Source: Hydrolagus colliei
Lineage: Eukaryota
Assembly (NCBI GenBank): GCA_035084275.1
Contig: CM068772.1
Coordinates: forward strand, 2,294,001 to 2,358,000
Direction of reading: 5' to 3'
Length of the DNA: 64,000 nt
Shown: positions 24,822 through 33,134 of the stretch, in pieces
Layout of the letters: every line of letters begins with the position of its first letter
How positions within the stretch are numbered: position 1 is the stretch's first letter
Notes under the pieces: generated by a model
What the model was told of the DNA's origin: nothing
The model's database searches: none
The model's input: the letters and a program-made list of their open reading frames with translations, nothing else
Translations under genes and position numbers: made by a program

Positions 24822-25053
24822 GCGGCCCACGCACACGGAAAAAGCGATGTCCATACACCAAATTCCAGATCAGAGAGCTTGAGAGAGAATTTTTCTTCAA
24901 CGTTACATAAACAAAGAGAAACGCCTTCAGTTGTCTCGGATGCTCAACCTCACTGATCGACAAGTCAAAATCTGGTTTCAGAACAGGAGGATGAAAGAAA
25001 AGAAACTGAACAGGGATCGATTGCAGTATTTCTCGGGAAACCCTTTGTTGTGA
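24822..25053 (+). CDS. hoxc11: Hox-C11, exon 2 (homeodomain) with an apparent 1-nt deletion at about 24903
   Basis: Acceptor TTTAG|GC. As read: [27 protein letters not shown], then ACA TAA (24908-24910). Adding one base (GTT TAC) gives [49 protein letters not shown]; repaired protein about 300 aa. Confidence 0.93.
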
Positions 25054-25902
25054 AGCTGAATAGTGTTGTTGTTTTTTTAAAAAAAAGAAAAGAAAAGAGA
25101 ATAATTGATTTTAAAACAAAAAAAAGCATTAAAAAAAATCACTACCGGCGTGTGTTGCTTTCGAACGAGAGCTGTGTGTATCAGATTTCTAGATACATTT
25201 CTAACTAACCAATATTTCTTTCCACCCCTCACCCCCCCCACCCCCCCACCTACCCTCCTACCCCTTCCCACCCCCATATGAACAGAGAAAGCTTGAATCG
25301 TGCAGAACTGTTCCCACCCCCACCCCCTTCCCCGGCTTTGTGTGCTTTTTTTAAAAAAGAAAAAAATATTTAACACCGATATGATATGTGTGGATATTCG
25401 AAATACTTTGATATTTACTATCTACTTATTTATATTCACATTGTTTTAAAAAAATTCGTGTTCATGTACATTATTGCAGTATTTGATATTCTATTCTGAC
25501 GTCCCTATATAGCAATTAGACATAAAAAAAGGTTCACATTTTTATCCACAGTGAGAGCTAAATATTTGGAATGTAAATGTATCATGCAATTCGATAGGTC
25601 TCGCGGGTCATAAAGGTAGATAATTTACAGAGCAACTTGTGTCTAGAAAATTGGCATTTTTTTTAAAAAGAAAAAAAATCGACTGCATTTTTTTTTCTAA
25701 GCTTGTTGCATCGACTTTCCCTTTTTAGGTTCATGTTTCCGGAAATGTAAATCTGTTTAACTTATTTTAGGTTACAATATCATATATATATATTAAAAAA
25801 GAGAGAATTGCACAGAGGGAAGCCTACATTTTCCCTGTGTAATTGGAAGGTACCTTTATACTTGCTTTCCACTGTGAACTTTTACGTTTCATTATATTTA
25901 CA

Positions 25903-25908
25903 AATAAA
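25903..25908 (+). terminator. Candidate HoxC11 polyadenylation signal
   Basis: AATAAA about 850 nt after the stop codon, with downstream T/GT-rich sequence. Confidence 0.45.
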
Positions 25909-26317
25909 GTGCTCTAAAATTGCTTTAATTTGAAGAATGTTTAATTTAAATGGTTATTTTTGTTTTGATGTATGTGACTTTTATCATCCTATAATATCAT
26001 CCCTTGCTTGCCTTGACGAAGATTCAGATGTGTTAAGATTTTAATATGCCAGATCTTCTATTCAATGTTAGTGGTTGAACAGAGATTCGATACTTTTGTA
26101 TAGTTTTTAAAACTCTCAATTTGTGTGTGCGTGTGTGTGGGAATGGGGTGGGGGGGGGGGTGGGGGGGTGGAAGAGGTTATGTATAAAGTATGTATAAAT
26201 GCAAGCATCTCTGCCAAGGCTCCATCCAACAAGGAATGTTATAAAATCATCACAGTTTTAATTATCTTATTTTGTTTTTTAAAAAAACAGCAATTTCGCA
26301 AAACAATTATAAGTTGA

Positions 26318-26517
26318 NNNNNNNNNNNNNNNNNNNNNNNNNNNNNNNNNNNNNNNNNNNNNNNNNNNNNNNNNNNNNNNNNNNNNNNNNNNNNNNNNNN
26401 NNNNNNNNNNNNNNNNNNNNNNNNNNNNNNNNNNNNNNNNNNNNNNNNNNNNNNNNNNNNNNNNNNNNNNNNNNNNNNNNNNNNNNNNNNNNNNNNNNNN
26501 NNNNNNNNNNNNNNNNN
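26318..26517. other. Assembly gap (exactly 200 N, probably an unsized scaffold join)
   Basis: Round-number N run between HoxC11 and HoxC6, flanked by G/C homopolymers. Confidence 1.
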
Positions 26518-30702: not shown

Positions 30703-30735
<33 letters not shown>

Positions 30736-32524
30736 CCCTCCCTTTCTCATATGTCCCCCCTTCATTGTGGAAAAAAAACAGTTTTGTTTTTGCGCGGCTG
30801 GTAAGAGTTTCAGTCAAATGATGTTTTAAATTATGCAGCCAATTTTCGTTTCAGTTCAGAGAGAGAGGGGGGAAAAAAGCGTTTTGCTAGTAGGAAAACC
30901 TTTGACCTAAAGAGTCATGAAATACTTCTTTTTATTGGCTTCATGTTCTATATAAAAGGCTATAAACCTCGTTTTTTTCTTCTTTTTTTTAAAAAGAGAC
31001 AGCTATTTGCCTCAAGATTAATTTCAACGTTTGAAGCATTTGGTGAGATGTTATGAAAGTAAAAAAAAACGACACTAACAATGTTATTCTGAATGCCTTG
31101 CACAAAATCAACATGCAGCCAGCTATATTGTGGATCACACAGTGTGCAGGGAAACATGCCATGCTTTGCACACTCACAGTTAAATAACGCCAGACACAAC
31201 AGCCAAAATAAAGACTATTTTTGGTTTAAACAGGGATAAAAATGGGAGAAGATGGAGAGGAAAGTTGTGCTTTTTTTTAAAAGAAAAAGAATGCCATGTG
31301 AGCTGTTTATTTGCAGGGTTGAGATATTTAGGGGTGGCGGGGTGGGGGGGGTGGGGGTGGGGGAGGAATTTGAAAATCTCTCTACCCTCTCCATCTAAGC
31401 AAACAATAGAGCATTATCTTTTGAGTTCGATTATTGATAATTTAGTGCAAGGAAACGTTGAATCTGAATAACTACAATGGGGGTGGGGGGCTGCCAATAA
31501 ACTTAAGATTCTTCGACAAACTAAACATGGATTGTTATCAGCAAAACGTTTATTGGGGGATGAAGTTAGAATATTATTATTGGCTCTGCCCCCCCCCCCC
31601 CCCCACCCCCTTTCCCAGTTTTAAAGAAAAAAATAATGCTACAACATCGACTTCCGATTCATCCCATTTAATATACCTAAAAGTTGTATTTGTACATTAG
31701 AAGCCAAGATATCCCAGATTTATTTTAAAACTAAGAAACCTGGGGAGCCAAAGCATGCGAGAAAACTTTCCTTTTTTTTGCAATAGTGTTGCTTTTTTTA
31801 AAACCCGGAAGACTGATGAATTTGATTATTCGTTAGGAGTTCTAGGAAAGAGAGTAAAGGCATGTGTGAACAATACTGTATATGTAAATCATTCCGTTTT
31901 GCTCAGGGATATTATTTGCTCAGGAATAGAAGGATAACCGGTTAACGCGGATGTTACACCATAATTAAGAGAGAAATCTCTTAAGAATACATGTGTATTT
32001 ATCAACATACATATCACTTCATACAAAAATACAAACTATCTTTCAAAATGTCATCACTGTGTGCCCCCAAAGAGTATGATGTCTGCACAGCATGTTGAAG
32101 GAAATCATCTTAAAATGAAATTGAGGAAATAATTTTGTTTACCCCCCACCCTCCCCTCCCACTCCCCTTAGGTTATTTTTCTCTCCACCATCTAGAAATA
32201 GCCACAAGACTCATGTGAAAAAAAAAGGTAGGAAATTGTCTAGCAATTGTGCTGTTGTTTGCATTGCAATCCTACCTTTCAGTTTGATTCTCAGGGATTT
32301 AATGTACACACACACATATATATATATATCTACATAAATACAAGATACTTAAAGCTGCCTCGGATTTTGCGTACTTTCACTCTGTTTGTCTTGGGAATCT
32401 TGAGTCAAGCAGAGCAATTCAGCCCCCCCCCCCCCCCCAGCCCCCCACCTCTCCACCCCCCACTACTCCAACACCCTCCCCCCCCACCTCTCTCTCTCTC
32501 TCTCTCCCTCTCGTCCATGACACA

Positions 32525-32730
32525 CAGGTTGTTATTGGTCAGGCTGGAGTCAGCTGACGTTGTCATTTTGTCTGCCTTGTAAGGCAAGCCTTCCCTTATA
32601 ACAATCTTGTTACAGTCTGTAAACTCCCGAGTCCAGAAAAAATATTATTGAAAAAATAACCCCATATTCCATAATTAACCCCCCCAAAAAATAGAGGCGC
32701 AAAAAAAAAATATCTCGAGGAGCTGGAGCT
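32525..32730 (+). promoter_or_regulatory. HoxC6 promoter/5'UTR
   Basis: ATTGG (reverse CCAAT), CAGCTGACG, and TTTTGTCTG...CCCTTATAACAATCTTGTT resembling the HOXC6 5' leader as recalled. Confidence 0.55.
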
Positions 32731-33134
32731 ATGAATTCCTATTTGCAAACCCTTCCTGCCTTGTCATCTAGCCAGCGGCCAAGAAATCCTACCCACCGCC
32801 GGGTTAAATTCAGCCGCTTTCGATCCGGTCAGGCATTTTTCCACGTACGGGGCTGCCGTGTCCCAGGGCAGAATTTACTCCTCCCCGTACTATTCCACGC
32901 AAGACAATGTGGTGTTCGGCCCCGGCCGGGCGCCCTTCGACTACGGATCCAACGCCTTCTACCAGGAAAAAGACCTGCCCGCCAGTTGCAGGCAAAACGG
33001 TCTCGGAAACAACACAGACAGCAGCAATCCCATCGCCCAGGACCTCAATGGAGAGCACATCAGGCGCTCAGCGCAAGAGGAGAAAAGCAATTTTCCAATA
33101 TATCCCTGGATGCAACGAGTCAACTCACACAGTG
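32731..33134 (+). CDS. hoxc6: Homeobox protein Hox-C6, exon 1, with two apparent 1-nt deletions (about 32743 and 32755)
   Basis: Restoring TAT TT(T) GCA and TCC (C)TG gives MNSYFANPSLPCHLASGQEILPTAGLNSAAFDPVRHFSTYGAAVSQGRIYSSPYYSTQDNVVF...IYPWMQRVNSHSG. Donor AGTG|GTGAGT at 33135. Confidence 0.93.

Follow-up and report, generated by a model that had tools for sequence, protein, structure and literature searches.

Holocephalan HoxC clusters have been described in two species. PMC12952989 reports a conserved cluster with HoxC8, HoxC9 and HoxC10 in Chimaera phantasma, the same set as in Callorhinchus milii, and to that extent agrees with the original prediction that C. milii carries HoxC8-C10. 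The C. milii proteome numbers (ending in 256 for C11, 258 for C9 and 261 for C5) would, going by the numbering, leave room for C10, C8 and C6, and its HoxC9 and HoxC5 are on contigs of equal length. The elasmobranch HoxC cluster was first reported missing, and the zebra shark is described as keeping c8, c11, c12 and part of c6 (both in PMC10620051). Together with the catshark (PMC13097845), these accounts support the earlier statement that elasmobranch HoxC clusters are eroded, and Hoxc9 is described as lacking in most sharks. Records named HoxC11, HoxC9 and HoxC6 exist for the shark Heptranchias perlo (P0284, P0091 and P0166), on contigs of equal length, making its HoxC set fuller than those of the two species that PMC13097845 names for Hoxc9.

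The stretch of DNA analysed here, 64,000 nucleotides that we call the window, is by its sequence a holocephalan HoxC cluster, because exon 1 of its HoxC11 is 91% identical to that of C. milii (203/224 in tblastn, with the frame open). The species it comes from is not C. milii itself. It holds five homeoboxes, all on the + strand and in collinear order: C12, C11, then a gap, then C6, C5, miR-10 and C4. HoxC12 (2460..4197, +) has two exons with open frames, and we name it tentatively from its position and a homeodomain signature. HoxC11 (23373..25053, +) consists of exon 1, from 23373 to about 24042, and exon 2 at 24822-25053. Its database search gave C. milii as the top match at 90%, a second-ranked match at 67% and the shark Heptranchias at 56%. 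Where proteins were compared with C. milii (C11), they are 91-96% identical outside frameshifts.

HoxC6 (32731..34274, +) begins with an ATG at 32731 and is named from 61 matches to exon 1, nearly all of them called Hox-C6. The frames of HoxC5 (37617..39059, +) are intact, and a search of 1.8 billion representatives gives one strong match for it, C. milii HoxC5. A miR-10 precursor (59516..59590, +; Rfam mir-10, 69.3 bits) lies between C5 and C4. The last gene (61610..63200, +), with a frameshift in its homeobox near 62988, is presumably HoxC4, judging from its position and sequence features. Spacing is 19,175 bp between C12 and C11, about 3.3 kb between C6 and C5, 22,550 bp between C5 and C4 and 30.5 kb between C6 and C4, while C11 to C4 spans 39.8 kb.

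Compared with C. milii, C11 is conserved (91%) and C5 divergent (58%). The latter figure is for HoxC5 exon 1, for which no other representative scores under E 1e-10, and the sequences suggest that HoxC5 may be evolving fast in holocephalans. HoxC5 is left out of the gene list given for both species in PMC12952989, yet a C. milii HoxC5 is on record. Members of a short interspersed repeat family occur at about 46800-49200, 8370-8490, 12786-12895 and 26883-26979, mostly between C5 and C4, and these fragments are probably pieces of SINEs. The head of a SINE probably accounts for a weak tRNA-like match at 46526-46586 (-; 29.8 bits).

The HoxC11 stop ends at 25053 and the HoxC6 ATG starts at 32731, and the distance between them is 7,677 bp, of which 200 are N. 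The 7.7 kb that had been claimed for this interval is therefore correct. The accompanying claim, that the assembled interval contains no homeobox, no YPWM exon and no miR-196, is upheld by HMM, tblastn, Rfam and exact matching, for the YPWM exon as far as HoxC9 exon 1 goes. We scanned the interval by six-frame HMM and tblastn and listed 104 stop-to-stop frames. A homeodomain protein HMM made from 95 sequences recovers only the five known homeoboxes in the window, as does a DNA HMM made from those five, and nothing in the interval scores above 1.1 bits (E 3.9) in these homeobox scans. For HoxC9 exon 1, neither C. milii HoxC9 (P0259) nor an N-terminal HMM of 120 sequences gives a match, the best E value in the interval being 1.6. 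As a positive control, a like HMM for HoxC11, with the holocephalan rows left out, scores its own exon in the window at 373 bits. A HoxC8-type exon 2, contained in the fused model P0169, matches the known homeoboxes only. The remnant probes comprised homeoboxes, HoxC9 exon 1 and the HoxC8-type exon 2.

For miR-196, we found 0 exact occurrences of TAGGTAGTT on both strands, and Rfam finds no mir-196 in the window while recovering mir-10 as a positive control. Nor is mir-196 among the 11 weak Rfam matches (up to E 10) at 24000-33500, all of which fall far under their gathering scores. HoxC10, HoxC9, HoxC8 and miR-196 are missing from the assembled letters, and the result holds for these letters only. 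One FPWM, at 29908, falls within a stop-to-stop frame of 45 aa that has no start, and we treat it as a chance occurrence.

Inside the interval the assembly has a gap of exactly 200 N (26318..26517). This number is likely a fixed filler length of the kind used in scaffolding where the distance between two contigs has not been measured. A second assembly gap, between HoxC12 and HoxC11 (7271..7524), has 254 N, and this odd size counts against the fixed-filler view since some gaps may be sized. In one study (PMC12481149), gaps of unknown size were filled with 100 N. The left flank (25054..26317, +) is likely the HoxC11 3' UTR plus about 0.4 kb more: a single AATAAA lies downstream of HoxC11, at 25903, and the gap starts 414 bp later, so the left contig carries little past the likely 3' end of the gene. 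The right flank (26518..32730, +) is 6.2 kb of non-coding sequence upstream of HoxC6 with no Hox remnant.

Only 19 bp separate the 200-N gap, on its right side, from a run of 20 C (26537..26556, +), and 4.6% of window positions are no more than 30 bp away from such a run. The window contains 38 runs of at least 12 G or C, though its GC content is about 40% overall (36-49% per 2 kb). Poly-G/C runs were counted in five segments, and their density is highest in the right flank (1.93 per kb). A C-rich tract follows both gaps, beginning about 55 bp in on the right side of the 254-N gap. Comparing the two flanks of the 200-N gap, we found no overlap and no shared unique direct repeat, and we saw in them one short interspersed-repeat fragment and otherwise only simple runs. 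At 28732..28796 (+), 4 kb upstream of HoxC6, an E-box, a CATGGCG and paired TTATGG-type sites form a putative promoter-like cluster. It may mark a distal HoxC6 promoter or a shared first exon, such as tetrapods have.

Four one-base frameshifts at short homopolymers affect 3 of the 5 genes (C6, C11 and C4). Two of them lie within the first 30 coding bases of HoxC6 (32742-32758), where MNSY, FANPS and LPCHL fall in three separate frames; MNSYFxxPSLxCHL opens 40 of the 61 matches. In the HoxC11 homeobox a one-base frameshift near 24901 splits over two frames the FFFNVYINKEKR that is present in 90 of the 92 homeodomain-bearing HoxC11 matches. The residues either side of each frameshift are conserved, and the C12 and C5 frames are intact. 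Because the changes are single bases at short homopolymers, flanked by conserved residues and accompanied by two intact genes, all four are likely consensus errors, which would break gene models. The original prediction did not mention them. The C11, C6 and C4 models of this assembly need polishing.

We consider it very probable that DNA missing from the assembly at this gap, likely some tens of kb, carries C10, miR-196, C9 and C8; the absence of these genes is likely an assembly artefact. Gene order in relatives would place HoxC10, miR-196, HoxC9 and HoxC8 at 26318-26517. The three protein-coding genes cannot fit into a literal 200 bp: in zebrafish their introns already add up to 4.1 kb, and in lizard to 8.8 kb (PMC3630018, Table 1). 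An artefact requires a gap in the interval, and one is there, just past the 3' end of HoxC11. The poly-C run so close to its right edge argues for hidden sequence, as do the four homopolymer frameshifts, which mark the sequence nearby as error-prone. The neighbouring spacings (C12-C11 and C5-C4) are long and not compacted, and the scans turn up neither a decayed homeobox nor a relic of HoxC9 exon 1, both of which point the same way. HoxC also has a record of false absence in other vertebrates: the elasmobranch cluster was initially taken to be missing (PMC10620051), and the clusters of chicken, opossum and platypus were incomplete (PMC3038165). Our high confidence in hidden sequence comes from the low prior for loss, given that two holocephalan families keep the genes, together with the position of the gap, its hard edge and the local errors.

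As to how the segment came to be hidden, contig building may have failed in a region rich in poly-G/C, after which two contigs would have been joined in the correct order with a fixed 200-N filler. That would have left the middle of the cluster unplaced or unassembled, a segment whose length we put at roughly 30-45 kb by scaling from other vertebrates. This size is a fair guess because in caecilian and frog HoxC11-HoxC8 takes about 40 kb, and HoxC6-HoxC4 likewise (PMC4470032), and because C6-C4 takes 30.5 kb here. No second holocephalan-like HoxC9 appears among the 120 of 145 database matches listed, the next full-length identity to C. milii being 76%. The HoxC11 search, short partial matches aside, likewise returned nothing at 72%-90%. 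This lineage is therefore probably not represented in the database, which tempers the HoxC9 null result. Among sequencing runs, 10 rows from 4 studies were found: one contains 0.87 of the sampled words and may be the source sample, nine contain 0.06-0.22 and carry no weight as evidence, and none of those listed is an RNA run.

The main alternative is that HoxC10, miR-196, HoxC9 and HoxC8 were deleted as one block, either in this lineage of chimaeras or just in the haplotype that was sequenced, the gap being small and coincidental. A clean absence without remnants fits such a deletion equally well, and central HoxC loss is real in cartilaginous fishes, such genes having been lost in sharks. At 2 gaps per 64 kb, chance alone would put a gap into a given stretch of 7.7 kb in about 1 case out of 5, giving a modest likelihood ratio, and the fast evolution of HoxC5 (58% vs 91% for C11) also counts for deletion and against the gap reading. 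We nevertheless find a block deletion quite improbable. All three genes are kept by both C. milii and Ch. phantasma, which also argues for hidden sequence; the cluster is neither expanded nor repeat-invaded, unlike the 180-kb cluster of the zebra shark; no unique direct repeat joins the flanks; and a poly-C run lies at the gap edge, with homopolymer errors in nearby coding sequence. True segmental loss would be expected to lie in gap-free sequence, whereas 200 N stand at 26318-26517, and gene-loss studies, according to PMC13005343, leave out loci with gaps. The original prediction had called the gap at least as likely as a deletion. It was right to put the gap forward but too cautious, the evidence for the gap being far stronger. 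The evidence does not support its other suggestion, that chondrichthyan HoxC decay has reached a new stage here: the cluster is holocephalan, its spacing is long and ordinary, its proteins are highly conserved, and C8-C10 are kept by the two holocephalans whose gene sets have been published.

The cluster might instead have been broken or rearranged, with the central genes elsewhere and C11 truly near C6, or two contigs might have been wrongly joined. Both contigs lie on the same strand in the normal order (C12, C11 / C6, C5, miR-10, C4), and PMC12952989 reports a conserved, constrained cluster for two holocephalans, so that we hold this to be very unlikely. Decay of the whole cluster, in which the C11, C6 and C4 frameshifts would be real and the missing block a product of the same process, could draw on the four frameshifts in 3 of 5 genes. 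All four, however, are one-base changes at short homopolymers, and the homeodomain residues before and after each shift are preserved. The frames of C12 and C5 are undamaged, and C11 exon 1 is open and 91% identical to C. milii. All of this makes such decay extremely improbable.

If the absence is an artefact, it is only a warning, namely that this assembly is unfit for scoring HoxC gene content. We found no report of a holocephalan lacking C8-C10 in the literature searched, and a true deletion would have no precedent there as a loss of central HoxC genes in this group. A clean block loss in a chimaera that kept compact, conserved flanks would amount to independent holocephalan HoxC erosion by a route unlike that of sharks, an outcome to which we give little credence. 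It would bear on how easily a vertebrate Hox cluster, when compact, sheds its middle and, in light of PMC13097845, on whether HoxA9 substitutes for HoxC9 in motor-neuron patterning outside sharks.

Set against known systems, the window shares with the holocephalan clusters of C. milii and Ch. phantasma the order C12, C11, C6, C5, C4 on the + strand. Few interspersed repeats lie near its gap, a further likeness, and its proteins are nearest to C. milii orthologues (C11 at 90%, C5 with its sole strong match). It differs in that its assembled letters are without C10, C9, C8 and miR-196, with a 200-N gap in their place. The eroded elasmobranch clusters (zebra shark, PMC10620051; catshark, PMC13097845) also lack C9 and C10. 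Theirs, however, are long (180 kb), repeat-invaded and fast-evolving, whereas the window has ordinary spacing and a conserved C11. Repeat invasion and expansion of the elasmobranch type are not what we see, with one repeat fragment in the gap flanks and 39.8 kb from C11 to C4.

The window can also be compared with published cases in which an assembly gap gave a false impression of gene loss (PMC9516821, and the early reports of missing HoxC in elasmobranchs and chicken). In such cases genes go missing at a gap where the DNA is hard to sequence, with indel errors close by, and assemblies made from long reads lose segments too (PMC9516821). The same combination is found here: the gap is at the missing genes' place, hard sequence lies at its edge and indel errors occur nearby. 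One difference from those cases is that the likely obstacle here is runs of poly-G/C and not bulk GC, which ranges from 36 to 49% per 2 kb.
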